Shown here: positions 1 through 62,260 of the stretch, piece after piece
How the letters are laid out: each line of letters begins with the position of its first letter
How positions within the stretch are numbered: position 1 is the first letter of the stretch
Sequence record: NC_054926.1
Reading direction: 5' to 3' (one strand)
Source: Escherichia phage vB_EcoM_OE5505
Length of the DNA stretch: 64,000 nt
Position numbers and translations under genes: made by a program
The notes under the pieces: generated by a model
What the model was told of the DNA's origin: nothing
Databases searched by the model: none
Seen by the model: the letters and a program-made list of their open reading frames with translations, nothing else

Positions 1-1653
<1,653 letters not shown>

Positions 1654-8087: not shown

Positions 8088-9653
8088 ATGACTATCAAAA
8101 CTAAAGCTGAACTTTTGAACAAATGGAAGCCATTACTGGAAGGTGAAGGTTTACCGGAAATTGCTAATAGCAAACAAGCGATTATCGCTAAAATCTTTGA
8201 AAACCAGGAAAAAGATTTCCAGACAGCTCCAGAGTACAAAGACGAAAAAATCGCCCAGGCATTTGGTTCTTTCTTAACAGAAGCTGAAATCGGTGGTGAC
8301 CACGGTTACAACGCTACTAACATTGCTGCTGGTCAGACTTCTGGCGCAGTAACTCAGATTGGCCCAGCTGTTATGGGTATGGTACGTCGTGCTATTCCTA
8401 ACCTGATTGCTTTCGATATTTGCGGTGTTCAGCCGATGAATAGCCCGACTGGCCAGGTATTCGCACTGCGTGCAGTATATGGTAAAGACCCAATCGCTGC
8501 TGATGCTAAAGAAGCATTCCACCCAATGTATGGTCCAGATGCAATGTTCTCTGGTCAGGGTGCTGCTAAGAAATTCCCAGCTCTGGCTGCTAGCACACAA
8601 ACCAAAGTAGGTGATATCTATACTCACTTCTTCCAGGAAACTGGTACTGTATATCTGCAAGCTTCTGCTCAAGTAACAATTAGTTCTACTGCAGATGATG
8701 CAGCTAAATTAGATGCTGAAATTAAGAAACAAATGGAAGCTGGCGCATTGGTAGAAATCGCTGAAGGTATGGCTACTTCTATCGCTGAACTTCAGGAAGG
8801 TTTCAACGGTTCTACCGATAACCCATGGAATGAAATGGGCTTCCGTATCGATAAACAAGTTATCGAAGCTAAATCTCGTCAGCTGAAAGCTGCTTACTCT
8901 ATCGAATTAGCACAAGACCTCCGCGCTGTTCACGGTATGGATGCTGATGCTGAACTGTCTGGTATTCTGGCTACCGAAATCATGTTGGAAATCAACCGTG
9001 AAGTTGTTGATTGGATTAACTACTCAGCTCAGGTTGGTAAATCTGGTATGACCCTGACTCCGGGTTCTAAAGCTGGTGTATTTGACTTCCAGGATCCGAT
9101 TGATATTCGTGGTGCTCGCTGGGCGGGTGAATCCTTTAAAGCTCTGTTGTTCCAGATTGACAAAGAAGCAGTTGAAATTGCTCGTCAGACCGGTCGTGGT
9201 GAAGGTAACTTCATTATCGCTTCCCGTAACGTAGTTAACGTTCTGGCTTCAGTTGATACTGGCATTTCTTATGCTGCACAGGGTCTGGCTACCGGCTTTA
9301 ACACTGATACTACCAAGTCAGTATTTGCTGGTGTTCTGGGTGGTAAATACCGTGTATATATCGACCAGTATGCTAAACAGGATTATTTCACCGTAGGTTA
9401 TAAAGGTCCGAACGAAATGGATGCTGGTATTTACTATGCTCCATATGTAGCTCTGACTCCGCTGCGTGGTTCTGATCCGAAGAACTTCCAACCGGTAATG
9501 GGATTCAAAACTCGTTACGGTATCGGTATCAACCCATTTGCAGAATCCGCTGCTCAGGCTCCGGCTTCTCGCATCCAGAGCGGTATGCCTTCTATTCTGA
9601 ATAGCCTTGGTAAAAACGCTTACTTCCGCCGTGTATATGTTAAAGGTATCTAA
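8088..9653 (+). CDS. 23: Major capsid protein gp23
   Basis: 521-aa ORF, T4 gp23 length; sequence recognised. Confidence 0.97.
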   Translation: MTIKTKAELLNKWKPLLEGEGLPEIANSKQAIIAKIFENQEKDFQTAPEYKDEKIAQAFGSFLTEAEIGGDHGYNATNIAAGQTSGAVTQIGPAVMGMVRRAIPNLIAFDICGVQPMNSPTGQVFALRAVYGKDPIAADAKEAFHPMYGPDAMFSGQGAAKKFPALAASTQTKVGDIYTHFFQETGTVYLQASAQVTISSTADDAAKLDAEIKKQMEAGALVEIAEGMATSIAELQEGFNGSTDNPWNEMGFRIDKQVIEAKSRQLKAAYSIELAQDLRAVHGMDADAELSGILATEIMLEINREVVDWINYSAQVGKSGMTLTPGSKAGVFDFQDPIDIRGARWAGESFKALLFQIDKEAVEIARQTGRGEGNFIIASRNVVNVLASVDTGISYAAQGLATGFNTDTTKSVFAGVLGGKYRVYIDQYAKQDYFTVGYKGPNEMDAGIYYAPYVALTPLRGSDPKNFQPVMGFKTRYGIGINPFAESAAQAPASRIQSGMPSILNSLGKNAYFRRVYVKGI

Positions 9654-9668
9654 TCTTTGACGATTTAA

Positions 9669-9700
9669 GGGACCTTCGGGTCCCTTTAGTTGTTTTTATG
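9669..9700 (+). terminator. Rho-independent terminator after gene 23
   Basis: GGGACC-UUCG-GGUCCC hairpin (UUCG tetraloop) followed by TTTAGTTGTTTTT. Confidence 0.7.
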
Positions 9701-9701
9701 G

Positions 9702-9709
9702 TATAAATA
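9702..9709 (+). promoter_or_regulatory. Late promoter core TATAAATA upstream of gene 24
   Basis: Exact TATAAATA directly after the gene 23 terminator. Confidence 0.5.
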
Positions 9710-9736
9710 AATCATATAAACTGAAAGGAAAGCGCA

Positions 9737-11020
9737 ATGGCTAAAATCAACGAACTTCTGCGCGAATCAACCACAACGAATAGCAACTCAATCGGTCGCC
9801 CAAATCTCGTTGCTTTGACTCGCGCTACCACTAAATTAATATATTCTGACATTGTAGCAACGCAAAGAACTAATCAACCTGTTGCTGCTTTTTATGGTAT
9901 CAAATACCTTAACCCGGATAACGAATTTACATTTAAAACTGGTGCTACTTACGCCGGCGAAGCTGGGTATGTAGACCGAGAACAAATCACAGAATTAACA
10001 GAAGAGTCTAAATTAACTCTCAATAAAGGCGATTTATTCAAATATAATAACATCGTTTATAAAGTATTAGAAGATACACCATTTGCTGATATTGAAGAAA
10101 GCGATTTAGAATTAGCTCTTCAGATTGCAATTGTTCTTTTAAAGGTTCGTCTATTTTCTGATGCTGCAGTAACAAGCAAATTTGAAAACTCTGATAGCGA
10201 AATTGCGGATGCTAGATTCCAGATTAATAAATGGCAAACCGCAGTTAAATCTCGTAAACTTAAAACTGGCATCACAGTCGAATTAGCACAAGATTTAGAA
10301 GCAAATGGATTTGATGCTCCTAATTTCTTGGAAGATTTGCTTGCAACTGAAATGGCGGATGAAATCAATAAAGATATTCTACAGTCTTTGATTACAGTAT
10401 CAAAACGCTATAAAGTTACAGGAATTACTGATACTGGATTCATTGATTTGAGTTATGCATCTGCACCTGAAGCTGGTCGTTCATTATACCGAATGGTGTG
10501 TGAAATGGTTTCACATATCCAAAAAGAATCAACTTATACAGCAACGTTCTGTGTTGCTTCAGCTCGTGCCGCTGCGATTCTTGCTGCATCAGGTTGGTTA
10601 AAACATAAACCAGAAGATGACAAATATCTTTCACAAAATGCCTACGGGTTCTTAGCTAATGGTTTACCGCTTTATTGCGATACCAACAGTCCATTAGATT
10701 ATGTAATCGTTGGTGTAGTAGAAAATATTGGTGAAAAAGAAATTGTTGGATCAATTTTCTATGCCCCGTATACAGAAGGTCTTGACTTAGATGACCCTGA
10801 ACATGTAGGTGCATTTAAAGTTGTAGTTGATCCAGAAAGTTTGCAGCCATCTATCGGTTTATTAGTTAGATATGCTTTATCTGCAAATCCTTACACTGTA
10901 GCAAAAAATGAAAAAGAAGCAAGAGTAATTGATGGTGGAGACATGGATAAAATGGCGGGTCGTTCAGATTTGTCTGTTTTATTAGGTGTTAAGCTACCAA
11001 AAATTATCATTGATGAATAA
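9737..11020 (+). CDS. 24: Capsid vertex protein gp24
   Basis: 427-aa ORF, T4 gp24 length; paralogue of gp23; no ORF between 23 and 24 (segD position empty). Confidence 0.95.
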   Translation: MAKINELLRESTTTNSNSIGRPNLVALTRATTKLIYSDIVATQRTNQPVAAFYGIKYLNPDNEFTFKTGATYAGEAGYVDREQITELTEESKLTLNKGDLFKYNNIVYKVLEDTPFADIEESDLELALQIAIVLLKVRLFSDAAVTSKFENSDSEIADARFQINKWQTAVKSRKLKTGITVELAQDLEANGFDAPNFLEDLLATEMADEINKDILQSLITVSKRYKVTGITDTGFIDLSYASAPEAGRSLYRMVCEMVSHIQKESTYTATFCVASARAAAILAASGWLKHKPEDDKYLSQNAYGFLANGLPLYCDTNSPLDYVIVGVVENIGEKEIVGSIFYAPYTEGLDLDDPEHVGAFKVVVDPESLQPSIGLLVRYALSANPYTVAKNEKEARVIDGGDMDKMAGRSDLSVLLGVKLPKIIIDE

Positions 11021-11026: not shown

Positions 11027-11050
11027 GGGACCGAAAGGTCCCCCTTTTTA
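11027..11050. terminator. Bidirectional terminator between gene 24 (+) and rnlB (-)
   Basis: GGGACC-GAAA-GGUCCC hairpin flanked by T-runs, between convergent genes. Confidence 0.6.
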
Positions 11051-11051
11051 T

Positions 11052-12056
11052 TTAACTTACCAATTCAATCCAAGCCGGACGAAGTACATCTTGTACCATT
11101 TTAACTAATTCCTTCTTAATCAAAGAAGGATTATCCGCTTGAGTTAGAGTAATACCTTCACGAGAAGTTTCTTCCAAAATATCTTGAACCGTTAGTCCCA
11201 TCACCTTTCCAAAATCTTTTGGACCAATTTCACCAATTTTAGAAATAACGTTATTTACTCGGTTCAGTGTAACGTAACAAGCTAAAATTCCAACCAATTT
11301 GTTATCAGCTTCTGACAACTCAACTTTAGCTTTAATAGGCTTATCAGACTTTTTCTTTTCACTAAATTTAGAGTTCTTGCATTTGATAGCTACGCGATTG
11401 CCATTAGGCATCCAAGAAGGATAACAAGGTTTCAATACATATCCTTCAGCGGTAAATACTTCGCCTTTTACTTCAGCATTCCAAACGCATTTATTTGCAT
11501 CAACTAATCCAGCATGGTCTACCGTAAAATTATAATCCTGGACGACAGAATCTAAATCATTTGGCAATTTAATAAGTTCTTCAAATTTACCGCGACCTAA
11601 AAGTGGAGCCATTTTAAATTTAAATGTATTGCAGAATGATTCCATCATATAATCATCGACATAAGTCACATCACCACTTTCTGTAGTAACAATAATGTCA
11701 AATACATAAAAATCTTTATCGCCATAATCGACATTCTTCTGAATGCCAGGTCCGGCGAATTCACCGAAGACTTGATAAGATACAACCGCTGAAGTTTCCA
11801 TAATATCTTGTACTGCTTTAATGGAATCAGCGTAATTCTTCAAAATAATTTCATACCCAAAGAAATCTTCAGCAGGAAGAATAGGACCAGTGCGTTTAGC
11901 ACAAGTTACTTTATCACGCTCAATAATTAATGAGAAATTTGTGCCATGAATCTTTTCACGAGCTACCCATTCGCCACCAGTCAATCCTAAACTATAAAGT
12001 TTTTCAATGAATTTAGAATTGTAATGATTTTCAAGACTGCTATACTTTTTAAACAT
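11052..12056 (-). CDS. rnlB: RNA ligase 2 (Rnl2)
   Basis: 334-aa ORF, T4 Rnl2 length; nucleotidyltransferase lysine motif KIHGTN; sequence recognised. Confidence 0.9.
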
Positions 12057-12065
12057 AATTAATCC

Positions 12066-12344
12066 TCAAAATGTAATTTCTAACCAATCACCATCACGCT
12101 GATCACTATTGACTTTAAAGCTAAATCCTTCTTTTCTCAGCCAATCACCAATTTCTTCAGTAATCAATTTATCGCGAGCAGTACAATAATAACTAAAATA
12201 TGTTTTACCTTGTTCAGCTGCTTTATTAGCAAGTTCCGAAAAATCTTTAATAAAACACTCTAGCTTAAACTGTTTACTTTTAAGTGCTTTTTCGCGTAAT
12301 CGATTAGCAAAAGATTCATTTTCATAAAGATCATACTGTTCCAT
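12066..12344 (-). CDS. Hypothetical protein (position of T4 24.2)
   Basis: 92-aa ORF with ATG start, tightly packed upstream of rnlB. Confidence 0.6.
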   Translation of the reverse strand: MEQYDLYENESFANRLREKALKSKQFKLECFIKDFSELANKAAEQGKTYFSYYCTARDKLITEEIGDWLRKEGFSFKVNSDQRDGDWLEITF

Positions 12345-12347
12345 TTT

Positions 12348-12545
12348 TCACCTTTTATTAATATGTCTTTTTCTATAGACAACTTTTTCTCGAGTTTCAA
12401 ATTTATTCTTAGCAGTCATAGCTCGAGCCCATAATACAGCCACTTCTTTCGCCTGTAAGTTTAATTCACGAGCAATTTCAATGAATGACTTTCCAGACTC
12501 ATGAAGAGTAAACACCACAACCTCAGTTCTCATAATCAATCTCAT
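12348..12545 (-). CDS. Small hypothetical protein with possible helix-turn-helix (position of T4 24.3)
   Basis: 65-aa ORF; the segment SGKSFIEIARELNLQAKEV looks like an HTH; basic C-terminus. Confidence 0.55.
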   Translation of the reverse strand: MRLIMRTEVVVFTLHESGKSFIEIARELNLQAKEVAVLWARAMTAKNKFETREKVVYRKRHINKR

Positions 12546-12599
12546 GTTATCGAGTTGATGCCATTATATACATCATTTTCTGAGTATGTTTTGTGTGCT

Positions 12600-12628
12600 T
12601 TCAAAATGAAGAAAGGGGCCGAAGCCCC
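12600..12628 (-). terminator. Terminator-like hairpin after hoc
   Basis: On the minus strand GGGGC-uucg-GCCCC followed by a T-rich run, just past the hoc stop. Confidence 0.5.
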
Positions 12629-12640
12629 TTATGATTATGA

Positions 12641-13777
12641 TTATGGATAGGTATAGATGATACCAGTTTCTAAAGCAGTTTTATGAATGATGTATCCATT
12701 GCGTGATTCTTGAACATCAACTTCTGGATAGTCTTTCATCATCTTCTGAAGAGTGTAACGATGCAGGTAGTATTTACTGTCTGGATCTTCAGTTTTCCAA
12801 TCTTTACCTTCTTCGGTCATTTTTTGGATTTCATCCATAACCCACCAACCGCACCAGATATAAGCTGAAGTACGATGTGGAAGAGGATGAACATAAGGCA
12901 ATTCACCTTCTGGTTCCGGAGCAACTTTATCAGTTACCTGAACTTGGCCTGTTGCTTTAACTGTTTTACTATCATAGTCGGTTGCTGTAACGACAGCAGT
13001 AACTTCAATAGTTTGACTTCCAATAGATGAGGTGTCAATGGTGTATACGTTAGTTGACCCTTCTACAGGAGAAGAATCTTTCTTCCATGAATAAGTAATT
13101 TATGCTGCTTCAGGTGCTCCAGTAACATTAGCCGTAAATGTAGCCGAAGCATCTTGCTGAACGTTAATAGAAGGAGGAGTCAATGTAACCTGTGGATTCA
13201 TTGTCTTCTTATTAACTGTCAATGATACTTCATTAGAAGTAACTTCCTTTTCATTGTAATTTTCTGCAGTTACTTGCGCTACACATTTAATTCTTTTTAC
13301 TCCACTTGTAGTTGGAGTATAGTTAAATGTAGAGTTAGTTTCTCCACCAATTTGAGAATCATCTACATACCACTTATATGTAGCAGACGCTCCATCAGGT
13401 TGAGAAGCTAAGGCAGCAGTAAATTGAACTGGAGTTCCGATTACTCCTTCCGAAGGACTATCAGGAGTTACTGTTATTGTAGTAGTCTGTGTCTTATTTT
13501 GAACTGTGATAGTTGTCGTAGTTTCTGCTGTTTCAGGTTCAGCTTCAGATTCTGGAACTGTATTTGTTGCAACCACCTTAATAGTCTTTTGACCTGCAGG
13601 TCCTTTTAGTACATAGCTAAAAGTTGCTTCAGCTCCATCCTGTGGAACATTATCTACACTCCAAGCATAGGTAATAGTTCCACCTTCAGTTTGACCACTG
13701 GGTGCAGCAGTAAACTGCTTGGTTTCATCAATAACTCCTGTTGGGGTTTTAGGAGTTATATCAACTGTAAAAGTCAT
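12641..13777 (-). pseudogene. hoc: hoc (outer capsid decoration protein) interrupted by one in-frame TAA
   Basis: The 225-aa ORF (13100-13777) and the 86-aa ORF (12641-12901) are in the same frame. Translating across the gap gives ...TGAPEAA*ITYSWKKDSSPVEGSTNVYT...EGELPYVHPLPHRTSAY..., with the only stop at plus 13100-13102 (TAA on the minus strand). The downstream part is the recognisable Hoc C-terminal domain. Confidence 0.85.
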
Positions 13778-13786
13778 AAGTTATCC

Positions 13787-14467
13787 TTATTTTAATGTTA
13801 CGAAAGAAGAATTGCGTGTTTCACGAATTAGAACTGATCCATCACGATTAATGTAGTAAATTAAGCTAAATAACGTTTGGTGCGCCGACGCGTGTTCAAA
13901 ACTAGTTGGGTGAGATTTCCAATCCGGAGTTTCAGCAATCCATTGATAAATCCACCAAGGAACAGTACAGAATCCTGGATTTTTTCCAATCAGCTGAAGA
14001 TTCGGACTAAAGTTTTCCGGAAGAGTAAATACAGACGGCTTTTCAAATTCAATAATCTCAGCTACAGCCTGTTCGAATTTTTCTTCAACAAAAGGAGTAT
14101 CTTCAATCAAAACATCAGTATTTTCAGGAATTTTATCCGTTTCTACTACTTCAATTTTAATGTCAGATTTAACCGGAGAATCAATCAGAAGTGCTGCCTC
14201 TGGATTGACTTCTTCATCGTCATATTTTAATCCGTCTGCGGCATCAGCAGCATCGATTAAGTCTTTAATAGATAACCCATCAGTCTCTGGCATAGGTTCA
14301 CTAGCGAGCTTCTGGAGGGCTTCTTCAATATCATTAACGATATTATCAAAAGATTTATTCTTTTTGACCTTTATACCAAACTGTTCAGCATATTCAGCTA
14401 ATTTAGCTTTAGCTTCTTTATTATCATCAAGAGCCTTCAGCTCTGCAATATAATCTTTATCTATCAT
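13787..14467 (-). CDS. inh: Inhibitor of prohead protease (Inh)
   Basis: 226-aa ORF, T4 Inh length; position next to hoc. Confidence 0.8.
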   Translation of the reverse strand: MIDKDYIAELKALDDNKEAKAKLAEYAEQFGIKVKKNKSFDNIVNDIEEALQKLASEPMPETDGLSIKDLIDAADAADGLKYDDEEVNPEAALLIDSPVKSDIKIEVVETDKIPENTDVLIEDTPFVEEKFEQAVAEIIEFEKPSVFTLPENFSPNLQLIGKNPGFCTVPWWIYQWIAETPDWKSHPTSFEHASAHQTLFSLIYYINRDGSVLIRETRNSSFVTLK

Positions 14468-14480
14468 AATATTTCCTCAG

Positions 14481-14488
14481 TATAAATA
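14481..14488 (+). promoter_or_regulatory. Late promoter core TATAAATA upstream of uvsW
   Basis: Exact TATAAATA about 30 nt upstream of the uvsW ATG. Confidence 0.45.
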
Positions 14489-14517
14489 TAGATATATTTA
14501 TTACATGGTATTTAGAC

Positions 14518-16029
14518 ATGACTGACATTAAAGTACATTTTTATGATTTTAGTCACGTGAGAATTGATTGTGAAGAAAGTACATTTCATGAACTCCGTGA
14601 TTTCTTTAGCTTTGAAGCTGATGGGTATCGTTTTAATCCGAAGTACAAATATGGTCACTGGGATGGACGAATTCGTCTTTTAGATTATAATCGCCTTCTT
14701 CCATTCGGTTTAGTCGGGCAAATTAAAAAGTTCTGTGATAACTTTGGCTATAAAGCCTGGATTGACCCGCAAATTAACGAAAAAGAAGAATTATCAAGAA
14801 AAGATTTTGATGAATGGCTTTCTAAATTAGAAATCTATTCAGGAAATAAAAGAATTGAACCGCATTGGTATCAAAAAGATGCAGTGTTCGAAGGATTAGT
14901 TAATCGTCGTAGAATTCTTAATCTTCCAACATCCGCAGGTAAATCTTTAATTCAAGCTTTGCTTGCTCGGTATTATTTGGAAAATTATGAAGGCAAAATT
15001 CTTATTATTGTTCCAACAACTGCTCTGACAACTCAGATGGCTGATGACTTTGTTGACTATCGTTTATTCAGTCATGCAATGATAAAGAAAATCGGTGGTG
15101 GAGCATCAAAAGATGATAAATATAAAAATGATGCACCGGTCGTTGTTGGTACATGGCAAACTGTAGTAAAACAACCGAAAGAATGGTTCTCACAGTTTGG
15201 AATGATGATGAATGATGAATGTCATCTTGCTACAGGAAAAAGTATTTCATCTATCATATCAGGTTTAAATAACTGCATGTTCAAATTCGGTTTGTCTGGT
15301 TCATTACGTGATGGCAAAGCCAATATCATGCAGTATGTTGGAATGTTCGGTGAAATATTTAAGCCAGTAACGACCTCTAAATTAATGGAAGATGGACAAG
15401 TAACTGAGTTAAAAATTAATAGTATTTTTCTTCGCTATCCCGATGAGTTCACTACTAAATTAAAGGGAAAAACTTACCAAGAAGAAATAAAAATTATTAC
15501 TGGGCTTAGTAAAAGAAATAAATGGATCGCTAAATTAGCTATTAAGCTTGCACAAAAAGATGAAAACGCTTTTGTCATGTTTAAACACGTATCGCACGGT
15601 AAAGCTATTTTCGATTTAATTAAAAATGAATACGATAAAGTTTATTACGTATCAGGGGAAGTTGATACCGAAACCCGCAATATAATGAAAACCTTAGCTG
15701 AAAACGGTAAAGGAATAATTATAGTAGCTAGTTATGGTGTATTTTCTACTGGTATTTCAGTTAAAAATCTGCATCACGTTGTTTTAGCACACGGTGTTAA
15801 ATCTAAAATTATTGTATTGCAAACAATAGGTCGCGTATTACGTAAACATGGTTCTAAAACAATCGCAACAGTCTGGGACCTCATAGATGATTGTGGTGTT
15901 AAGCCAAAATCTGCTAATACGAAAAAGAAATACGTTCATTTGAACTATCTTTTAAAACACGGCATTGATCGTATTCAGCGCTACGCAGATGAAAAATTTA
16001 ATTACGTAATGAAAACAGTTAATTTATAA
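14518..16029 (+). CDS. uvsW: UvsW DNA/RNA helicase (SF2)
   Basis: 503-aa ORF; Walker A (PTSAGKS) and DExH-like (NDECH) motifs; sequence recognised; no ORF between inh and uvsW (segE position empty). Confidence 0.9.
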   Translation: MTDIKVHFYDFSHVRIDCEESTFHELRDFFSFEADGYRFNPKYKYGHWDGRIRLLDYNRLLPFGLVGQIKKFCDNFGYKAWIDPQINEKEELSRKDFDEWLSKLEIYSGNKRIEPHWYQKDAVFEGLVNRRRILNLPTSAGKSLIQALLARYYLENYEGKILIIVPTTALTTQMADDFVDYRLFSHAMIKKIGGGASKDDKYKNDAPVVVGTWQTVVKQPKEWFSQFGMMMNDECHLATGKSISSIISGLNNCMFKFGLSGSLRDGKANIMQYVGMFGEIFKPVTTSKLMEDGQVTELKINSIFLRYPDEFTTKLKGKTYQEEIKIITGLSKRNKWIAKLAIKLAQKDENAFVMFKHVSHGKAIFDLIKNEYDKVYYVSGEVDTETRNIMKTLAENGKGIIIVASYGVFSTGISVKNLHHVVLAHGVKSKIIVLQTIGRVLRKHGSKTIATVWDLIDDCGVKPKSANTKKKYVHLNYLLKHGIDRIQRYADEKFNYVMKTVNL

Positions 16030-16054
16030 GGGCTTCGGCCCTTTGGAGAAAAAG
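16030..16054 (+). promoter_or_regulatory. Hairpin plus Shine-Dalgarno between uvsW and uvsW.1
   Basis: GGGC-UUCG-GCCC hairpin immediately after the uvsW stop, then TTTGGAGAAAAAG before the ATG. Confidence 0.4.
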
Positions 16055-16285
16055 ATGTTACTAGAATTTAAACAATTTCTTTATGAAGCTTCTATTGATG
16101 AATTTATGGGTAAAATTGCCTCTTGTCAAACAATAGAAGGTCTAGAAGAACTTGAAGCTTATTATAAGAAAAGAGTTAAAGAAACTGAATTAAAAGATAC
16201 TGATGACATCTCAGTCAGAGATGCTTTGGCAGGAAAAAGAGCTGAATTAGAAGATTCAGACGATGAAGTAGAAGAAAGCTTTTAA
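16055..16285 (+). CDS. uvsW.1: UvsW.1-like small acidic protein
   Basis: ORF track starts at a TTG (16043); ATG at 16055 with GGAG upstream gives 76 aa, the T4 UvsW.1 length. Confidence 0.7.
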   Translation: MLLEFKQFLYEASIDEFMGKIASCQTIEGLEELEAYYKKRVKETELKDTDDISVRDALAGKRAELEDSDDEVEESF

Positions 16286-24931: not shown

Positions 24932-26982
24932 TACATTTTGAACTTTTTAGACATTCCGTTGATGTTAACCAAAGAAGCTAAGATTTGAGAAACTTCGCTT
25001 TCCTCTTCTTTTGATTCTTCTACAAGGAATTGATTAAATCCAGCCATTGGACGAACTTCACCAGTTTCCATTAGATGGTCGCCATCATATACTGATTCTT
25101 CTAATTGTTCAGAAGGAGGAACGATTGTACCTTCGATTAGATACTTGTTATAAGCAGTTTCTTTCATAAAGTAAGTACTTACTTTATTAATCTTCAGTAA
25201 AATTCCACGTGGTAGAATAATTTCAGCTTCTGACGGAAATCCTGATAAATGACCCGGAACGATAACTTTGATTCGCTCAGCTCCTTTAATTACCATACCC
25301 ACGCTAGTTTCAGCATCTTCATTAGCATATGTAGAATGACTACCCATATGCATCAAATCTTCTGCATCAACGGAACCTTCTCCTTCACCAGAAAATACTG
25401 CGCCGGAATCATCTAGAGCCATATAGTTTTTACCATGCTCACCGAAGATATTTGGTTTAAGCGATGTGGATACGAAGTTCTTGAAATAGAACATTTTATT
25501 TTCAATGTTATGACGCAAAGTTTTAAAGGTAACTTCTTGTCCACGGTAAAGTGTAGTTCCTGGAGGAAGAACTGAACCTTTAGCGAATGCAGAATCAAGC
25601 GTCTCAATATGTTTAATAGCTCGTTCCATATATTCTTCACGGGTAGAATCTGGTTTACCCAAAAGGAACGAGTTCATTTCAACATATGAATCTGCACAAT
25701 AATCTTCAATTACATCAGATTCAGCTTGAGTTAATCCTTTTGGAGTTACTTCAGTGCTTGCGTATTCATATGCCTGAGCAGCAGATTCATTAATCAATTT
25801 ATAAATGCCATTCATGACAAATTGAATAATAGCTGTCTTTTCATCTGGCGTAGCTTTAGAACCTTTAACCAAATCATTGATAATTTTCTTAATAACATCA
25901 AAGCTATTAGAAATATTAATATCAGCAAGATCGCTTAAAATTTTATCAGTCTTATAATCAAAGAATTCTTTATTCTTTAAATATTCTTGAGAACCTTGAT
26001 ATGTTATATCGCTCTGTAACTTGATAGATGGATCACGTAAACGTGCATGGGCTAATGCAATATGATTTCGGAAGCTTTCGAGTTCATAATCACTAGATTT
26101 AAAACGAGAAGCGCTTCTCATACCGCCTATAGCTCCTTTGCTGAAGTTTGAACCAATTTGAATAACGCCAGAGTTCATTGGTCCTTCTGCTTTATACACC
26201 GGAACTTTAGATTCAAACTCTTGATATTTCTTAGCAGCGAAGCTATCACCCTGAAGTGAAGCATCAACAGTAGAATATTGAGCTTGTGCTGCTAATCGAC
26301 GACTAATTTTAGTTTTCTGAATAACAGCTTGGTCCGTGCGCTTATCATTTTCTAAAGCAATAGAAGCAGCAACAGCTTTAGGAACAGCATTACCTGTTTT
26401 AACATCTACATAAACATCACCAACCTTTGATTCAACTTTTGTGAATAACTCAGTTGAAATAGGAGGTACACCTGGAATGTCTTCTAAATTGGCATTTTTA
26501 CGATAAACCATAATATATGCGTACTTTTTATCATAATCCCAGATTTCCTTTAAAAGAACATATCGACCTGCTCCTTTAGTACGTACTAAACGGTCAGCAA
26601 TAACTTGCATTTGACGAGCTGCGCCATTTGTTTTACTCTTTAGTACACGGAATAAGCACGCGTCAATTTTATACTGCTTCATTGTTTGAAGAGCAGTATC
26701 AAAAACGGCATTAATGACACCAATTGGATTTCCACCCAAGTTTTTAAGCTTAACTAATGATAGTTTCTCATTAACACCTATCATTACGATATGCATCATT
26801 TTATCGCCTGGCTTAACGTTTTTATTCGTATCACCACCAGAGGTGTATGTACAAAATCTAAATCCAGGAAGCACGCTTTCTTCGCCGGCTTGAATAGCAA
26901 AAATTTGTGGTATTTTATGCTTAGGATTTAAGTTAACAACCGGCGCCGAAGCGCCGTCAAATAATTCTGTAATAAGTTCCAT
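24931..26982 (-). CDS. Alt-family ADP-ribosyltransferase paralogue (second copy, 683 aa)
   Basis: Begins MELITELFD like Alt and has the same architecture; R/STS/ExE-like motifs are retained (LYRGQ, FVSTSL, SEAEIILPRG); the central region diverges from the upstream copy; its own AAGGA Shine-Dalgarno lies inside the upstream gene's 3' end. Confidence 0.8.
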   Translation of the reverse strand: MELITELFDGASAPVVNLNPKHKIPQIFAIQAGEESVLPGFRFCTYTSGGDTNKNVKPGDKMMHIVMIGVNEKLSLVKLKNLGGNPIGVINAVFDTALQTMKQYKIDACLFRVLKSKTNGAARQMQVIADRLVRTKGAGRYVLLKEIWDYDKKYAYIMVYRKNANLEDIPGVPPISTELFTKVESKVGDVYVDVKTGNAVPKAVAASIALENDKRTDQAVIQKTKISRRLAAQAQYSTVDASLQGDSFAAKKYQEFESKVPVYKAEGPMNSGVIQIGSNFSKGAIGGMRSASRFKSSDYELESFRNHIALAHARLRDPSIKLQSDITYQGSQEYLKNKEFFDYKTDKILSDLADINISNSFDVIKKIINDLVKGSKATPDEKTAIIQFVMNGIYKLINESAAQAYEYASTEVTPKGLTQAESDVIEDYCADSYVEMNSFLLGKPDSTREEYMERAIKHIETLDSAFAKGSVLPPGTTLYRGQEVTFKTLRHNIENKMFYFKNFVSTSLKPNIFGEHGKNYMALDDSGAVFSGEGEGSVDAEDLMHMGSHSTYANEDAETSVGMVIKGAERIKVIVPGHLSGFPSEAEIILPRGILLKINKVSTYFMKETAYNKYLIEGTIVPPSEQLEESVYDGDHLMETGEVRPMAGFNQFLVEESKEEESEVSQILASLVNINGMSKKFKM

Positions 26983-26985: not shown

Positions 26986-29043
26986 TTATCCTTGAACGAA
27001 CTTGTAAGGCATGTTTGCAATATCTATACAAGACGCAATAATTCCAAGAGATGATTCTACTTTCTGTTTAACATTTGATGAAACAAATGATGCAAAGTCA
27101 ACTCTGTCTTCTACTTCAATATCACCTGTCATTGTAACTACTTCGCCGGTTTCCATTAGACGGTCACCGTCATAAATTACCGATTCGGTGAGTTCTTCTG
27201 TGGTCATAACTTCAGCTTGAATAAGCTTGTTGTTAGTTTTAACTGTTCCATCATTGTAAGATGCATCGGTTATTTTATTAACTTTGACCATTAATCCACG
27301 TGGCAAAATGACTTCCATTTCATTTGAAGGTGCTAAACTTCCACCTGGTAAAACAACATTGACTTTATCAGCCCCAGTAATAACCCATCCAATTCCAACT
27401 AAATTATCGCTAGAATTTACTAGTCCTTCATCAGTTTTATCAATAGAAACACTTAAACGCTTTTCGTCTGGTAAAACACCCACAGATGAATCAGTCATCC
27501 AGGTACCAAAAATATTTGGATATAATGATGTTGACACAAAATTTCTAAAATAAAAAACTCGATTTTTTACCAGTGCTTCATATATTGAAGGTAACATTCG
27601 TTGTGAACGATACAAAGTAATACCTTTTGGTAATCGTTCACCATTTTTAAAGGCTGAATCTAAATTATCAATAGCTTTTTCTATGTCAGATGCTGTCAAA
27701 ATACTTGTACGCTCATCTGGATTATATAATCCCAAAAGAGCATTATTTATGTCTACATATCCTGAACCTACGTATTCACGAATTCCGCGTTTTTGTGCTG
27801 GTGTGTATTTAGATGAATCTTTATTTTCGACTATAGGATGTAATGACCATCCAGCGGTAAGAGCATATCCACGCAATTCTCTTCGAATAATCTTTGTTTT
27901 TATTGCATTCCAAGAATTTTGTACTAACTCATTCGCAGCATCTTGATTTAAATGCGAATGCTTGTTAATGTTTCTTTCTAACCAAGCACCTTTATATTTT
28001 TCTAAAGTATCATCAACTATAGAAGCAATAGTTTCTAAAGTTTTTATTGAAGTAATAGATTCTTTTCGTAATCTTTCTAAAGCTTTATTTTTTATTTCTG
28101 CATTAACATCAGATTCTTTATCTTCAGGAATTATAGAAGCTTCTCTGAATGCCATTCCAGCTGTAACACTACTAAGAGCATTCTCTAATGCAAATCCTGA
28201 AGTAGAAATAACAGTTAATTCATTAGCGTCAGAAATTAAAGGAGCGTCAGCAGGTTTATTTAATTCTGCTGCTGAAGCCTCAAATTTTTGAAACATCGGC
28301 GTTTCAAATCTAGAAGATTCCAATGATTGACTTTGCGCAATTGCTCTACGGGAAATTTTAACTTTAACGATTACAGCTTGGTCAGAACGTTTATCATTTT
28401 CTTGCGCAATAGATGCTGCAATTGCCTCATTTTTAGTTACTTGAGCTCCAGTATCTTTATTGATATAAACATCACCGACCTTCGATTCAACTTTAGTAAA
28501 GAGCTCAGTACTAATTTCCGGAACTCCCGGAATGTCTTCTAGTGATACATTTTTGCGATGTATAAGAATATATGCATACTTTTTATCGTAATCCCAGAGT
28601 TCCTTAAGAAGGACGTATCTGCCACCTGAACGACTGCGGATAAGTCTATCAGCAATAAGTTGAATTTGACGAGCTTGACCAGCAGTTTTAGACTTAAGAA
28701 TACGGAGCATGCAGGCATCAATTTTATACTGACGCATCGTTTGCATTGCAACTGTAAAAACTGAATTGATATAATTAATTGGGCTTGGACCAAGACCTTT
28801 TAATTTAGCAATTGAACCTTTAGCAGTTAATGTAAAAGGAACAATATGCATCATTTTATCGCCCATCTTTAAATCGCGATTAGTATCACCTCCAGATGTA
28901 TAGGTACATAAACGAAAGCCTGGTTGTTCAATTGCATCATCAACATGAACTGAAAAAATTTGCGGTATTTTCTTCTTTGGATTTAAGTTTGTAATCGGAA
29001 GAGTAGTATCTTCGTCAAATAATTCTGTAATAAGTTCCATCAT
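26986..29043 (-). CDS. alt: Alt ADP-ribosyltransferase (685 aa)
   Basis: Sequence recognised as T4 Alt (about 682 aa in T4): MMELITELFDEDTTLPITNL...; R/STS/E motifs (LYRSQ, FVSTSL, EVILPRG). Confidence 0.9.
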   Translation of the reverse strand: MMELITELFDEDTTLPITNLNPKKKIPQIFSVHVDDAIEQPGFRLCTYTSGGDTNRDLKMGDKMMHIVPFTLTAKGSIAKLKGLGPSPINYINSVFTVAMQTMRQYKIDACMLRILKSKTAGQARQIQLIADRLIRSRSGGRYVLLKELWDYDKKYAYILIHRKNVSLEDIPGVPEISTELFTKVESKVGDVYINKDTGAQVTKNEAIAASIAQENDKRSDQAVIVKVKISRRAIAQSQSLESSRFETPMFQKFEASAAELNKPADAPLISDANELTVISTSGFALENALSSVTAGMAFREASIIPEDKESDVNAEIKNKALERLRKESITSIKTLETIASIVDDTLEKYKGAWLERNINKHSHLNQDAANELVQNSWNAIKTKIIRRELRGYALTAGWSLHPIVENKDSSKYTPAQKRGIREYVGSGYVDINNALLGLYNPDERTSILTASDIEKAIDNLDSAFKNGERLPKGITLYRSQRMLPSIYEALVKNRVFYFRNFVSTSLYPNIFGTWMTDSSVGVLPDEKRLSVSIDKTDEGLVNSSDNLVGIGWVITGADKVNVVLPGGSLAPSNEMEVILPRGLMVKVNKITDASYNDGTVKTNNKLIQAEVMTTEELTESVIYDGDRLMETGEVVTMTGDIEVEDRVDFASFVSSNVKQKVESSLGIIASCIDIANMPYKFVQG

Positions 29044-36612: not shown

Positions 36613-36845
36613 AGTACGCCATACACCCTTTGTGCTTCAACTAATCCATCAAAATCCAATTTGAGATGTGTTATTTGGTCACCATCACCTGGATTCACAA
36701 TTACTAATACTGAACGAGGAGTCTCGGTAATAACACGAACCGATGTTTCAGGAAATCGTTCAGAAACCTTATTTACCAATTCTTGAGCAAATAGTTTAAC
36801 TTTTTCTTGGAATTCTTTAACAGTAATTGGTTTTTCGCTTAGCAT
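36609..36845 (-). CDS. Hypothetical protein (78 aa)
   Basis: ATG start. Confidence 0.5.
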   Translation of the reverse strand: MLSEKPITVKEFQEKVKLFAQELVNKVSERFPETSVRVITETPRSVLVIVNPGDGDQITHLKLDFDGLVEAQRVYGVL

Positions 36846-37366
36846 GTTGATCCCAGCTCCTTACTTTCAACGTTTTTAACTAATTTGACAGAAACTAATT
36901 CGGCATCTTGGGTAATCATTACCGGGCCTTCTTCATACTCTTCAAGATATTCTAGAGCTTTCTTTTTAGCTTCTTCCTTCGTATCAGTTTGAGCATAGAT
37001 ATAGAACATACAACCAGTAATACCTACTACTTTCCACTTAATTTCTTTATCAGCTTTAATTTCAAATTTACTGACAGAATCATCTTTTTGAACTTCTTCG
37101 AAAAAAGAATATTCTAACATATAAGCAATTGAAAATAACGGGCTAACTTTATAGGATTCGCCCATTACATCAACAGCTTTATACCAGCAATCGTCAATTT
37201 CGCGTTTAATGCTAATAACATTTTTCGCAGGATCTATTTTTACTTTAAATGAATTTTCCCCAATAAACTGGGCAATTCGTTTATTAGCCCCACAAGTTTC
37301 ATTAAAAATATCTTTATATCCAGCTTTAAAGCGATAAACCTTACCTTCTTCAAACCATTCGCTCAT
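36839..37366 (-). CDS. Hypothetical protein (175 aa)
   Basis: ATG start. Confidence 0.5.
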   Translation of the reverse strand: MSEWFEEGKVYRFKAGYKDIFNETCGANKRIAQFIGENSFKVKIDPAKNVISIKREIDDCWYKAVDVMGESYKVSPLFSIAYMLEYSFFEEVQKDDSVSKFEIKADKEIKWKVVGITGCMFYIYAQTDTKEEAKKKALEYLEEYEEGPVMITQDAELVSVKLVKNVESKELGSTC

Positions 37367-37428
37367 TTCAATTTCCTCATTTGTTTTGGTAGAGCTATAA
37401 TATCACAACTCTACCGTAAAGTAAACTA

Positions 37429-37704
37429 TTAAATTGCTTTGAATTCTGATGTCTGTGATTCAAAACGAATATCGCCTTTGATAACTAACTCAGCATCAAG
37501 ACCAAATACGACAATGATATGCGCAGAACCTGGATACAGCGTAATGGCGATAGAATCCACCTGGTCTGGAAGCAAAGTGTTCAATACATGAGTCACTTGA
37601 GCATGAATTCGAAGCTCAGCTGCGTTATCAAGCTTTTCAAACATATTATTAGCGATAATTTGGCTAAACACTACTTCTACGATTTTAGAATAAGTCGGAA
37701 ACAT
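37429..37704 (-). CDS. Hypothetical protein (91 aa)
   Basis: ATG start. Confidence 0.5.
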   Translation of the reverse strand: MFPTYSKIVEVVFSQIIANNMFEKLDNAAELRIHAQVTHVLNTLLPDQVDSIAITLYPGSAHIIVVFGLDAELVIKGDIRFESQTSEFKAI

Positions 37705-37706: not shown

Positions 37707-37907
37707 TTACCTCACATAATTTTCTTCAAGCCAATCAATAACATCCAACGCATTATCAAAAGTTGAACCATCTACTTTGTCTTCTGTTTCATAATCAAGA
37801 ACATCTAAACCTACTCTTCCATCAACAATAGGCCATAAACAAAATAGATATTTCTTTTCTTTTTCAATCTTATCACAAAGACGATAAATCTTTTCTATGT
37901 TATTCAT
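37707..37907 (-). CDS. Hypothetical protein (66 aa)
   Basis: ATG start. Confidence 0.45.
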   Translation of the reverse strand: MNNIEKIYRLCDKIEKEKKYLFCLWPIVDGRVGLDVLDYETEDKVDGSTFDNALDVIDWLEENYVR

Positions 37908-38096
37908 AAGTTTTCCATGGTAAAGGCAGTTTAGTTTTCTTTACTGTTAGTTCAACATCAGGATTCTTTTCTCTTAATTTAAGGCATTCCTCCCATGCTC
38001 TATTTTCACTAGTAAATACACAAAATTGCCCATTACTAGTACCAACTAAACCGCTATTTACAATAACAATAGCCCAAGTTTCATGGTGCCAAGCCA

Positions 38097-38097
<1 letters not shown>
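37900..38097 (-). CDS. Hypothetical protein (65 aa)
   Basis: ATG start; ends at the pseT start. Confidence 0.45.
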
Positions 38098-39318
<1,221 letters not shown>

Positions 39319-39322
<4 letters not shown>

Positions 39323-39549
39323 TTATTTTTCTCAACCAATGATTGAATATAATCATGCAGGTCTTTAGATGCTTTGCCCCACTTATTTTGATATTCATTT
39401 TTGAGATTAGCACGTGATTGAGCTAATAAAACATCATTAGTTGGAGGTAAAGATTCTAATCGTTGAATCTGGCGTCCATAAATCATTGCAGCCATCTCAG
39501 ATTCATAAATCAATCCTTTGAGATGTTCAAATTGATGCCATGAAATCAT
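39319..39549 (-). CDS. Hypothetical protein (76 aa)
   Basis: ATG start. Confidence 0.45.
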
Positions 39550-42341: not shown

Positions 42342-42371
42342 AATAAAATGGGCCTTGCGGCCCACTCCTTA
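42342..42371 (-). promoter_or_regulatory. Hairpin-split ribosome binding site for denA / terminator-like hairpin after nrdB
   Basis: Minus strand reads TAAGGAG-TGGGCC-gcaa-GGCCCA-TTTTATT-ATG. The nrdB stop overlaps AAGGAG; a 6-bp stem with GCAA loop separates the Shine-Dalgarno from the denA ATG. Confidence 0.5.
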
Positions 42372-43547
42372 AAAGTATTTTTTAAAACTCATCATAACTT
42401 TATCATCAACATCATTATCAATCTGTGCAACAAGGTAAGATGACAATTCTACTTCTTGTGGCGCAGATTGAACATTATCAGAATTAAGATATTCACGAAT
42501 CCAAGGATATGGATGTTTAACCGGAGCATCGGTAATTGGGCATGGAAGACCACACTGCTTCATACGAGATACAGTTAAGTAATCAATAAAGCTCCACATG
42601 CTATTTGTATTTAATCCAGGAACATCTCCATCTTTAAATAAATGAACTGCCCAATCTTTTTCTTGGCGGTTAACTTCCATGAAAATATCAACTGCTTCTT
42701 GTTCACACTCTTGAGCAATTTTAACCCATTCATCGCCATCAGTACCAGATTGAAGTTGACGAATAATATATTGGGTGCCTTTAAGGTGAAGCTGTTCATC
42801 GCGTGCAATGAACTTCATAATCTTGGCATTACCTTCCATGATTTCCATGTTCTTATGGAAGTTAAAGGTACATGCAAAAGATACATAAAAACGAATAGCT
42901 TCCAATGCGTTGATTACATGCAAACAGAGGTAAAGAGATTTCATTAGCTCACGCTTCCAATATGTCTCATGCTCAATAGCATCTTCAATAACGTCTTCGT
43001 CTGCATTAATTTCTTTTTGGTATTCGATATCAGCTTTAGCGTTTTCCCAATAACGAGTTTTAATCAGAACATCATCATAATAACGTCCAATGGATTCAGC
43101 ACGTTTCATAATAGCTTCATCTAATACAATCTCATCAAATACCTTCGATGGATCAGTATAAAGATTTCGCATGATATGAGTATATGAACGACTGTGAATA
43201 GTTTCACTAAAAGTCCATGTAGCAACCCATGTATCAAGACTTGGGTCTGAAATTAATGACATAAGTACAGCAGACGGCGCACGACCCTGAATGCTATCTA
43301 AAAGTGATTGATACTTCAGGTTGTTAGTAAAAATATTTTGCTGGTACTGAGGAAGCTTATTAAACTGTGCAGCATCCATCATTAAGTTTACTTCTTCAGG
43401 ACGCCAGAAAAATGACAACTGCTTTTCGGTTAAATCTTCAAAAACTTTATGACGTTGAATATCATAACGCGCAATACCAAGACCTGAACCAAAAAACATA
43501 GGTTCTTTTAAAACATCAACTGGGTTTGTATTAAAAACTGTGCTCAT
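42369..43547 (-). CDS. nrdB: Ribonucleotide reductase small subunit NrdB (no intron)
   Basis: Continuous 392-aa ORF with the di-iron/tyrosyl radical protein signature; T4 nrdB is interrupted by a group I intron, this one is not. Confidence 0.95.
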   Translation of the reverse strand: MSTVFNTNPVDVLKEPMFFGSGLGIARYDIQRHKVFEDLTEKQLSFFWRPEEVNLMMDAAQFNKLPQYQQNIFTNNLKYQSLLDSIQGRAPSAVLMSLISDPSLDTWVATWTFSETIHSRSYTHIMRNLYTDPSKVFDEIVLDEAIMKRAESIGRYYDDVLIKTRYWENAKADIEYQKEINADEDVIEDAIEHETYWKRELMKSLYLCLHVINALEAIRFYVSFACTFNFHKNMEIMEGNAKIMKFIARDEQLHLKGTQYIIRQLQSGTDGDEWVKIAQECEQEAVDIFMEVNRQEKDWAVHLFKDGDVPGLNTNSMWSFIDYLTVSRMKQCGLPCPITDAPVKHPYPWIREYLNSDNVQSAPQEVELSSYLVAQIDNDVDDKVMMSFKKYF

Positions 43548-43598
43548 AAATTTTCCACTTAGTTAATAGATAGTGACTCGTCCATGAGTCAAATTATA

Positions 43599-45863
43599 TC
43601 ATAATTTACAGGATGAACAATCTTCAGCTTTTGGAGTTTCTATTTCATAATCATCAGTACCAGAACCATCACGGGTATTATGATAATAGAAATTTTTTCC
43701 GCCAAAATACCAAAAATACAAAAGGTCATCAATCATTATTGACATTGGAACCTTTCCTTTTGGAAAAATCTGCGGGTCATAATATGTATTCGCTGAAGCT
43801 GATTGACATACCCATTTCAGCATAATAGCTACCTGCGTAAGATAAGGTTTATTACCTTTCTTAGCTAATTTCCACGTATAATCATATAGGTCTATGTTAT
43901 GCTCAATATTGGGCACGACTTGATTAAAGGAGCCCTCTTTTGATTCTTTAACAGAGACTGGTCCACGTGGAGGCTCGATACCGTTTGTACTGTTAGAAAC
44001 TTGGGAAGATGACTCACATGGCATAAGTGCTGATAATGTGCTATTACGGATGCCAAAGAGCTTAAGGTCTTCCCGCAGCGCCGACCAGTCACAAACGTAT
44101 TTTGGAGCTGCGATTTGGTCAATCTTTTTATTGTACCAGTCGATAGGTAATTCGCCTCGAGACCAACGAGTGTCTGAATAATATTCGCAAGGTCCTTTTT
44201 CTTTGGCGAGCTTAATGGATGCTTTAATGAGTCCATACTGTAATCTCTCAAATAGTTCATGTGTTAAATCATTAGCATCTTCATAAGAAGCAAAGTTACT
44301 TGCCAGCCAAGCTGCATAGTTGGTAACACCTACACCGAGGTTACGACGCTTTTTAGCTTTTTCTGCTTCAGGAACTGGATATCCTTGGTAATCCAACAGA
44401 TTATCAAGAGCACGAACTTGAACTTCTGCCAATTCATTAATTTTATCTTGGTCTTGCCAGTCAAAATTATCTAGTACGAATGCAGAGAGAGTACACAATC
44501 CAATTTCAGCATCAGGACTATTCACATCATTTGTTGGAATAGCAATTTCACAGCACAAGTTACTCTGGCGAATAGGTGCCTTTTCACGAATAAACGGAGT
44601 ATAGTTATTCGTATTATCAATGAACTGCACATAAATCCTTGCTGTTCCTGAACGTTCAGTCATGAGCAATTCAAATAGTTCACGGGCTTTAATACGCTTT
44701 TTACGAATATTAGGGTCTTTTTCTGCTGCTTCGTATAATTCACGGAAACGGTCTTGGTCTTTAAAATAAGAATAATAAAGCTCTCCACCCATTTCATGGG
44801 GACTGAACAAAGTAATGTAATCGTTCTTTCCAAAACGTTCCATCATCAAATCATTCAGTTGAACACCATAATCCATATGACGAATGCGGTTTTCTTCTAC
44901 GCCTTTGTTATTTTTCAAAACGAGAAGATTTTCAACTTCCAAATGCCAAATAGGATAATAAGCAGTAGCAGCGCCGCCACGAATTCCACCCTGTGAACAT
45001 GATTTAACTGCAGTCTGAAAATGTTTCCAAAAAGGAATAACACCAGTATGGCGTACTTCACCCATGCCAATCTTAGAACCTTCAGCACGAATCATACCAA
45101 CGTTAATACCAATTCCAGCGCGTTTAGAGATATATTCAACAATCGAAGCGGAAGCCTTATTGATAGACTTCAATGAATCTCCTGCCTCAATAACAACGCA
45201 TGAACTGAACTGTCGAGTCGGAGTACGGCAACCAGCCATAATAGGAGTTGGCAGTGAAATCTGTCGAGTAGATACTGCTTCATAAAAACGAATAACATGT
45301 TTTAATCTATCAACAGGTTCATCTTGATGCAATGCCATTCCAATAGTCATAAATGCAAACTGTGGAGTTTCATAAATTTGACCAGTGGTTTTATCTTTAA
45401 CTAAATATTTTTCTTTTAATTGCATCGCCCCGGAATAAGTAAATTCCATATCCCGTTCGTGCTTAATTTTTGATTCTAAAAATGTAATTTCTTCTGCTGA
45501 ATATTTTGACAACAATTCAGGGTCATATTTACCTTCATTTACACAGTAAGAAATATGGTCAATAAATGAACGTGGTTCATACTGCCCATAAACATGCTTA
45601 CGAAGAGCAAACATTAAACAGCGTGCAGCTACATATTGATAATCAGGCTCTTCAACCGAAATAGAATTCGCAGCGGCCTTAATGACAATAGTCTGAATAT
45701 CATCAGTTGTCATTCCATCACGGAGATAAGATTTAATATTTTCATATAATTCATAAGGATCTACTGATGTTCCTTCAGCTGCCCAAGATAAAACTTTAAT
45801 AATTTTTTGCGGGTCAAAGCTCTGAGAAACACCACTACTTTTGATAACATTAATTAATTGCAT
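43599..45863 (-). CDS. nrdA: Ribonucleotide reductase large subunit NrdA
   Basis: 754-aa ORF, T4 NrdA length; sequence recognised. Confidence 0.95.
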   Translation of the reverse strand: MQLINVIKSSGVSQSFDPQKIIKVLSWAAEGTSVDPYELYENIKSYLRDGMTTDDIQTIVIKAAANSISVEEPDYQYVAARCLMFALRKHVYGQYEPRSFIDHISYCVNEGKYDPELLSKYSAEEITFLESKIKHERDMEFTYSGAMQLKEKYLVKDKTTGQIYETPQFAFMTIGMALHQDEPVDRLKHVIRFYEAVSTRQISLPTPIMAGCRTPTRQFSSCVVIEAGDSLKSINKASASIVEYISKRAGIGINVGMIRAEGSKIGMGEVRHTGVIPFWKHFQTAVKSCSQGGIRGGAATAYYPIWHLEVENLLVLKNNKGVEENRIRHMDYGVQLNDLMMERFGKNDYITLFSPHEMGGELYYSYFKDQDRFRELYEAAEKDPNIRKKRIKARELFELLMTERSGTARIYVQFIDNTNNYTPFIREKAPIRQSNLCCEIAIPTNDVNSPDAEIGLCTLSAFVLDNFDWQDQDKINELAEVQVRALDNLLDYQGYPVPEAEKAKKRRNLGVGVTNYAAWLASNFASYEDANDLTHELFERLQYGLIKASIKLAKEKGPCEYYSDTRWSRGELPIDWYNKKIDQIAAPKYVCDWSALREDLKLFGIRNSTLSALMPCESSSQVSNSTNGIEPPRGPVSVKESKEGSFNQVVPNIEHNIDLYDYTWKLAKKGNKPYLTQVAIMLKWVCQSASANTYYDPQIFPKGKVPMSIMIDDLLYFWYFGGKNFYYHNTRDGSGTDDYEIETPKAEDCSSCKL

Positions 45864-46180: not shown

Positions 46181-46397
46181 ATTGTTTTTCCGTTAAAACA
46201 GTAATATCATAGTAACAATCTGAAGAAGTTTTAACTGTAGAAATTTTATTATCAAAATACTCACGAGTCATTTTATGAGTATAATATTTTTTGCCATAAA
46301 TGATAATAGGCTGATTTGGTCCTGGAACTTCTAACTCACTTGGGTTAGGAAGTGTAAAAAGAACTACACCAGAAGTATCTTTAAATCGTAAAATCAT
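46134..46397 (-). CDS. Hypothetical protein (position of T4 nrdA.2)
   Basis: 87-aa ORF, ATG start; overlaps the next ORF in another frame. Confidence 0.5.
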
Positions 46398-46420
46398 AAA
46401 TCCTCACAATTAAATTAAAA

Positions 46421-47281: not shown

Positions 47282-47326
47282 TTAGTACCTTATATAAATT
47301 ATAATACATTTTATGAAGCTAAATAA

Positions 47327-47674: not shown

Positions 47675-47694
47675 ATTTTCCGCCACGCGTTATT

Positions 47695-48521
<827 letters not shown>

Positions 48522-50600: not shown

Positions 50601-50660
50601 TTTATTTCCTTTTTAATTTAATTTAATTAACAGTTGGTGCTATGACACTTTACCTCATAG
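50601..50660 (-). promoter_or_regulatory. gp32 translational operator (AU-rich leader with upstream hairpin)
   Basis: Minus strand reads CUAUGA-gguaaagug-UCAUAG then UUAAUUAAAUUAAAUUAAAAAGGAAAUAAA-AUG: an unstructured repeated UUAAA region like the T4 gene 32 autoregulatory site, with a hairpin in the position of the T4 pseudoknot. Confidence 0.55.
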
Positions 50661-62254: not shown

Positions 62255-62260
62255 CAACAA

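Follow-up and report, generated by a model that had tools for sequence, protein, structure and literature searches.

The stretch of DNA analysed here, hereafter the window, comprises 64,000 nucleotides of Escherichia phage vB_EcoM_OE5505 (NC_054926.1). Its gene order gp24, rnlB, 24.2, 24.3, hoc, inh and uvsW is that of phage T4, with hoc lying between 24.3 and inh and read in the direction opposite to gene 24. Translation of the minus strand from 13777 to 12641 gives a single hoc frame of 378 codons with a terminal TAA, interrupted once by an internal TAA at codon 226 (plus-strand positions 13100-13102) in the context ...TGAPEAA*ITYSWKKDSS.... Two minus-strand open reading frames are listed in this frame, namely 13100-13777 (225 amino acids, ATG start) and 12641-12901 (86 amino acids from an internal TTG). 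The first-pass annotation had proposed that the two were one full-length Hoc-like gene of about 378 codons, split by a single ochre codon as its sole interruption. The coordinates and the shared frame were reproduced by translation, T4 Hoc could be aligned from end to end, and neither the translation nor the T4 Hoc alignment disclosed any further internal stop or any frameshift in 13777..12641 beyond the TAA at codon 226. The features of the locus are as follows.

12641-13777, minus strand: the whole hoc frame, made up of 378 codons and closed by its regular stop, TAA, at 12641-12643 (from the sequence, its translation, the T4 Hoc alignment and phrog_1149).
13100-13102, minus strand: the premature ochre codon TAA, codon 226, equivalent to T4 Gln224; from CAA, by a C-to-T transition at plus-strand position 13102.
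13103-13777, minus strand: the part still translated, 225 residues, covering Ig-like domains 1 and 2 and approximately the first third of domain 3 (from the open reading frame list, Pfam and phrog_1149).
12644-13099, minus strand: the untranslated remainder, codons 227-378, covering what is left of Ig-like domain 3 together with the capsid-binding domain, with its sequence intact (C-terminal end of phrog_1149).
12644-12931, minus strand: the capsid-binding domain at the C-terminus, codons 283-378 (T4 281-376), with all gp23-contact residues conserved.
13039, minus strand: the second private substitution, G739A on the sense strand, which gives Val247Ile and lies 63 nt downstream of the premature stop (from comparison with relatives).
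13784-13788, minus strand: an AAGGA resembling a Shine-Dalgarno sequence, placed six bases upstream of the ATG of hoc and overlapping the inh stop codon (sequence ...aaaataaggataacttATG).
12603-12630, minus strand: an intrinsic-terminator-like hairpin, AAGGGGCTTCGGCCCCTT, with a T-rich tail, directly after the normal hoc stop (from the sequence).

Both the ribosome-binding site of hoc and the terminator hairpin after its normal stop are in place in the window, and a terminator has been annotated in phage G29 at the position matching the hairpin at 12603..12630.

The frame is that of a full-length Hoc homologue. Compared with T4 Hoc (PDB 5vf3_Z), the window frame gives a full-length match with an E value of 9e-222 and 339 identical residues out of 376 (about 90%), and tblastn with T4 Hoc as the query aligned residues 1-376 at 88%, with one stop in the window. 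The family phrog_1149 (‘Hoc-like head decoration’) is matched by both halves, with E values of 1.7e-56 for the N-terminal and 2e-69 for the C-terminal half. T4 Hoc consists of three Ig-like domains and a C-terminal capsid-binding domain at residues 281-376 (Fokine et al. 2023); the latter attaches at the centre of each gp23 hexamer, so that a head carries 155 copies, and the protein is dispensable in the laboratory. The window hoc has the expected series of Ig-like (PKD / I-set) domains on its N-terminal side: the Pfam PKD model is matched at Hoc 102-173 with 32.4 bits against a cut-off of 23.5, I-set at 195-280 with 23.9 bits against 23.7, and Ig_3 at 195-262. Since the Ig_3/I-set domain spans 195-280, the stop at codon 226 falls inside Ig-like domain 3.

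The capsid-binding domain is likewise encoded, downstream of the stop, with its Tyr/His, Arg, Trp-Trp and Glu-Ser-Arg-Asn-Gly motifs, and 93 of its 96 positions match T4. Using the list of gp23-contact residues from Fokine et al. (2023), the T4 residues Y293, H295, H299, R300, Y304, W306, W309 and W310 were found to be identical within window codons 283-378, as were Q354, E355-G359 and Y360. The earlier claim that the truncated 225-residue product lacks the capsid-binding domain is borne out, as this domain (T4 281-376, window 283-378) lies beyond the stop. The resemblance to intact T4 Hoc therefore extends to the architecture, about 90% identity and identical gp23-contact residues (PDB 5vf3 and related entries); the difference is that the window frame closes at codon 226, so that only the N-terminal 60% can be made. 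An uninterrupted frame linking the Ig-like domains to the capsid-binding domain is what the window hoc lacks, the break being the TAA at codon 226. Judged from its sequence, the locus is hoc by descent and would by function be a null allele or incipient pseudogene.

It had also been predicted that T4 would carry CAA at the codon homologous to window codon 226, and the comparison returned exactly that. The codon is CAA (Gln) in T4, T2, T6, phage ESh25 and the metagenomic contig L031, and ESh25 and L031, both CAA, are the two closest relatives of the window hoc. Across the best 120 cluster representatives of 922 Hoc homologues, the homologous position is Gln in 119 and Asn in one, and no amino-acid state other than the ochre sets the window Hoc apart from all of these representatives. 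Because the homologous codon is CAA in the five sequences named and Gln in 119 of the 120 representatives, the two open reading frames amount to more than a chance pair.

The distribution of the allele was assessed with 55-mers that have the variant base in the middle, a design that forces any megablast seed to include it. The TAA version matched 0 phage records and the CAA version found seeds in 86; the TAA 55-mer was also absent from complete E. coli genomes, and an exact 32-mer with TAA was absent from IMG/VR, metagenome contigs and prokaryote genome contigs. Only two substitutions in hoc are private to the window with respect to eight DNA relatives, C676T (Gln226 to ochre) and G739A (Val247Ile), both of them G:C-to-A:T transitions and 63 nt apart. 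The same two, both inside hoc, are the only private changes across the 3,439 aligned bases from rnlB to inh (window 11040-14480), the flanks of hoc, including the upstream Shine-Dalgarno region, showing no window-private substitution within that interval. Ile247 is a natural polymorphism present in other intact Hoc alleles that keep Gln226. The scarcity of private changes and the lack of decay downstream of the stop point to an ochre allele that, as far as the alignments tell, is evolutionarily very young, or else an error.

The second of these options is the main rival to a genuine mutation, namely that sequencing or the consensus introduced the T as an artefact, or that the assembly caught one allele out of a mixed lysate, while the phage population carries CAA and makes normal Hoc. 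It is in keeping with the occurrence of the TAA allele in no other sequence of any collection searched, with its distance of one base from the nearest intact alleles and with the undecayed downstream sequence, as an error would look alike in being both unique and young. Against it, the quality of the remaining sequence can be set. A tblastn comparison of 91 T4 proteins with the 64 kb window found homologues for 80, and the 79 homologues other than hoc displayed no stop or frameshift suggestive of error; this clean background indicates a consensus of high quality, which makes random error less likely. Apart from hoc, stops were shown in two T4 homologues only, the uvsW/uvsW.1 split and a shorter cd.5, and both are explained. 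The uvsW region (window 14524-16282, plus strand) contains an open reading frame of ~510 codons and a separate uvsW.1 read in a different frame, which is how T2 and T6 records annotate it; in the T4 reference, UvsW is annotated as a single protein of 587 amino acids, with a flag for a sequence discrepancy there. In the cd.5 homologue (window 37900-38130, minus strand), two in-frame stops lie near the 5' end and the probable start is an internal Met (MAWHHETW...). Poor sequence was considered as the cause of these stops and rejected, given that they precede the internal Met and that the open reading frame is simply shorter.

Two further points weigh against an artefact. Few structural genes are known to tolerate nonsense, and the sole nonsense codon seen here is in such a gene. 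Phages sequenced independently of one another also repeatedly show an inactivated hoc, and for T2 as well as for T6 two records agree in the lesions; these identical lesions in independent records imply that real loss of hoc is common. An artefact or mixed stock is hence judged distinctly unlikely, and we infer that the change is a real mutation rather than a consensus error. The preferred reading, to which a probability of roughly 0.78 is assigned, is that the window hoc has suffered a real and very recent CAA-to-TAA loss of function, which would leave a truncated Hoc and a viable phage with Hoc-less capsids.

The proposed course of events is brief. One C-to-T transition would have converted Gln226 (CAA) into an ochre codon (TAA), and translation would end inside Ig-like domain 3, leaving a 225-residue product made up of the first two Ig-like domains and a fragment of the third. 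This product would be devoid of the C-terminal domain through which Hoc docks onto the middle of each gp23 hexamer and, lacking a capsid-binding domain, could not be incorporated. A free N-terminal Hoc fragment may thus be made without entering the capsid. The virion is expected to be viable and to bear none of the 155 Hoc fibres typical of the T4 head, Hoc (normally one per gp23 hexamer) being predicted by analogy to be absent from the mature capsid. The traits that would be lost with it are the Hoc-dependent ones of T4: adherence to mucin and to cell surfaces, the dominant capsid antigen and pH-dependent clustering.

Production of a separate capsid-binding domain through re-initiation was contemplated and deemed unlikely, as past the stop the frame offers a single canonical start, the TTG at 12901. 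An AGGTGA motif lies only ~2 nt upstream of this TTG, which is itself 199 nt beyond the ochre stop, and no in-frame start with a usable Shine-Dalgarno sequence was found in the hoc frame after the ochre. Nor does the window contain a second capsid-binding domain or another Hoc-like gene.

Full-length Hoc might still be made in useful amounts if the ochre were read through or suppressed, whether by a phage suppressor tRNA, by a suppressor host or by readthrough that depends on the context. A tRNA-Gln is part of the tRNA cluster of T4-type phages, and T4 tRNA mutants that suppress ochre codons have been described (T4 psu tRNA-Gln). The fully intact hoc coding sequence downstream of the stop would suit such a mechanism, and so would the position of the T4-type tRNA cluster outside the window; the window itself, however, holds no tRNA gene, and the young age of the mutation suffices to account for the undamaged sequence downstream. 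UAA is the stop codon least prone to readthrough in E. coli. The flanks of the stop are colinear with intact alleles, the nearest being those of ESh25 and L031, and therefore give no hint of bypassing or recoding signals. Nor does the locus have the marks of programmed recoding, the stop being unique to the window (119 Gln and 1 Asn in the 120 representatives) and its surroundings being those of intact alleles. Moreover, an analogous ochre in the T4 mutant HAP1 gives Hoc-less capsids. Suppression of the stop is accordingly regarded as extremely improbable, and truncation of Hoc stays the favoured outcome.

HAP1 (T4 delta-Hoc) offers the closest precedent for that outcome. It carries a spontaneous hoc mutation, C496T, which turns the CAA of Gln166 into TAA, and the absence of Hoc from its capsid has been shown by ELISA and display work. 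The two alleles share the gene, the CAA-to-TAA change and a truncation upstream of the capsid-binding domain, and HAP1 is viable, as the window phage is expected to be. They differ in the codon affected (T4 166 as opposed to the T4 equivalent 224, window 226), in the product, which retains two full Ig-like domains in the window phage and about 1.7 in HAP1, and in the background, which is T4 for HAP1 and a mosaic Tequatrovirus with T2-type tail-fibre genes for the window phage. Loss of Hoc is an experimental fact for HAP1, whereas for the window phage it is a prediction, drawn from the analogy with HAP1 and from the known function of the domains. With a single CAA-to-TAA transition upstream of the capsid-binding domain in a gene otherwise intact, the window ochre allele belongs to an already published class of hoc knockout, and it would be notable only as a clean, very young single-base knockout.

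A further rival reading is that the window allele was deliberately made or selected in a laboratory, for capsid display or through mutagenesis, rather than being a spontaneous variant. Hoc-minus strains are standard display platforms, and two G:C-to-A:T transitions 63 nt apart fit mutagenesis of the hydroxylamine type, although they fit spontaneous deamination equally. On the other hand, laboratory hoc mutants are built in T4, and the window phage has a hoc only about 89% identical to that of T4 together with T2-type gp37/gp38; Ile247 is a natural polymorphism, and the 64 kb hold no other engineered-looking change or nonsense codon. As laboratory hoc mutants derive from T4, and the window phage is not T4, a laboratory origin is considered very unlikely, and a spontaneous loss of function continues to be preferred.

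The comparisons identify the window phage, as far as its 64 kb go, as a mosaic T4-like Tequatrovirus distinct from T2, T4 and T6. Many of its proteins are 96-100% identical to those of T4, and by megablast, in which 678 phage records matched the hoc region, identity reaches at best 97.5% for hoc and 97.1% for a block of 24 kb. Exact protein look-ups with the 225-residue Hoc product and with gp37 gave no match. The distal tail fibre is T2-type (window 59270-63089, plus strand), with a gp37 of 994 amino acids followed by a gp38 adhesin of 266 amino acids with glycine-rich repeats; the best match of gp37/gp38 is phage EcNP1 (95.8%), and the T4-type gp38 chaperone is absent. No tblastn match in the window was obtained for segD, segE, mobE, I-TevI, I-TevIII or nrdB.1, the intervals without these T4 genes being 9650-9737, 14467-14524, 42365-43602 and 46397-47698. 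As I-TevIII and I-TevI found no match, the nrdB and td introns that carry them in T4 are presumably absent. The gene segG is present and 100% identical to that of T4 (window 50658-51287). Two full-length alt-like ADP-ribosyltransferase genes stand in tandem on the minus strand, one at 24940-26982 with 41% to T4 Alt, the other at 26989-29040 with 98%; all that T4 retains of the second alt copy are the remnants alt.-1 and alt.-2. Relative to T4, there is extra sequence of ~600 bp between cd.2 and cd.3 (window 36827-37432) and of ~320 bp between pseT and pseT.1 (window 39002-39328), in both places probably representing additional small open reading frames.

Broken hoc genes were also encountered in other members of the T-even group. 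T2 capsids have classically been described as Hoc-less. The first-pass annotation had pointed to Hoc deficiency in T2 as a parallel to the window phage, and the genomic evidence assembled here is consistent with it in that T2 genomes do carry a broken hoc; the lesion is a different one, however, consisting of three frameshifting deletions and no ochre codon. Relative to T4, these deletions remove 11 nt (codons 56-59), 1 nt (codon 160) and 2 nt (codon 331). Over 1,191 nt of the hoc region, two independent T2 records (L007 5400-6600, AP018813; L033 2353-3598, MH751506) show no difference, and hoc is annotated as three fragments in one of the records and not at all in the other. In T6, a +1 insertion near T4 codon 158 (GTTAAAAAG as against GTAAAAAG in T4) runs into an immediate TAA; two independent records (L035 1590-2850, MH550421; L036 2603-3845, AP018814) are identical over 1,243 nt including this insertion, with hoc left unannotated in one and given as two fragments in the other. 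No usable statement on Hoc in T2 or T6 virions was found in the open-access literature. As in the window phage, the inactivated hoc of T2 and T6 lies between 24.3 and inh with its flanking genes intact. The lesions of T2 and T6 are frameshifts, whereas that of the window is one base substitution without decay, and the decay of T2 hoc through multiple lesions therefore bespeaks an older loss.

Split genes of a similar kind occur in Escherichia phage vB_EcoM_G29 and in IMG/VR UViG 2700989062 (L028), where a frameshift divides hoc into two overlapping open reading frames. These are environmental T4-like genomes which, like the window phage, show hoc in the form of two open reading frames; unlike it, they owe this to a frameshift instead of a nonsense codon. 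Such a frameshift-split hoc accounts for roughly 1 in 60 of the best megablast matches, a figure that refers to deposited genomes at the consensus level. Given the broken genes of T2, T6, G29 and the IMG/VR genome, inactivation of hoc is therefore recurrent. One further candidate, an IMG/VR T4-like contig (L026 78-3197), was rejected as an interrupted hoc, as it encodes an intact Hoc-like protein; at 1039 amino acids, this giant has many Ig-like repeats before a canonical capsid-binding domain. In addition, the Hoc of many close relatives possesses one or two extra Ig-like domains, with lengths of 472 and about 568 amino acids (L003 1642-3066, PYps32T; P0001-P0037), and from these extra domains it follows that the length of hoc varies by whole-domain duplication within the clade.

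The practical value of these observations is modest and pertains to annotation and phenotype prediction, for what is seen would be an ordinary loss of function in a dispensable gene. The locus would be better labelled as a hoc pseudogene or null allele than as two hypothetical open reading frames. Hoc-dependent mucus adherence, antigenicity and display behaviour should not be assumed for the window phage, a caution relevant to any use in therapy or for mucosal retention. Conversely, a naturally Hoc-less Tequatrovirus other than T4 could take Hoc fusions in trans, as has been done with HAP1.

Two more speculative ideas should also be given consideration. Loss of Hoc could be a recurrent and positively selected outcome in T-even phages rather than neutral decay, although this appears unlikely. 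Were it true, the selection would come from laboratory passage, or from environments in which the immunodominant and aggregation-prone Hoc fibre is a liability, and the known cases would form a series of decay that begins with the window phage, at the earliest stage with one substitution, and with T6, which has one frameshift, and ends with T2 and its three frameshifting deletions. More speculative still, the free fragment of two Ig-like domains released at lysis may have a function of its own, for instance as a decoy that binds glycans in solution. Published work treats Hoc as seemingly universal in the family; despite this, the window phage taken together with T2, T6, G29 and the IMG/VR cases shows that hoc has been repeatedly inactivated in T-even phages.
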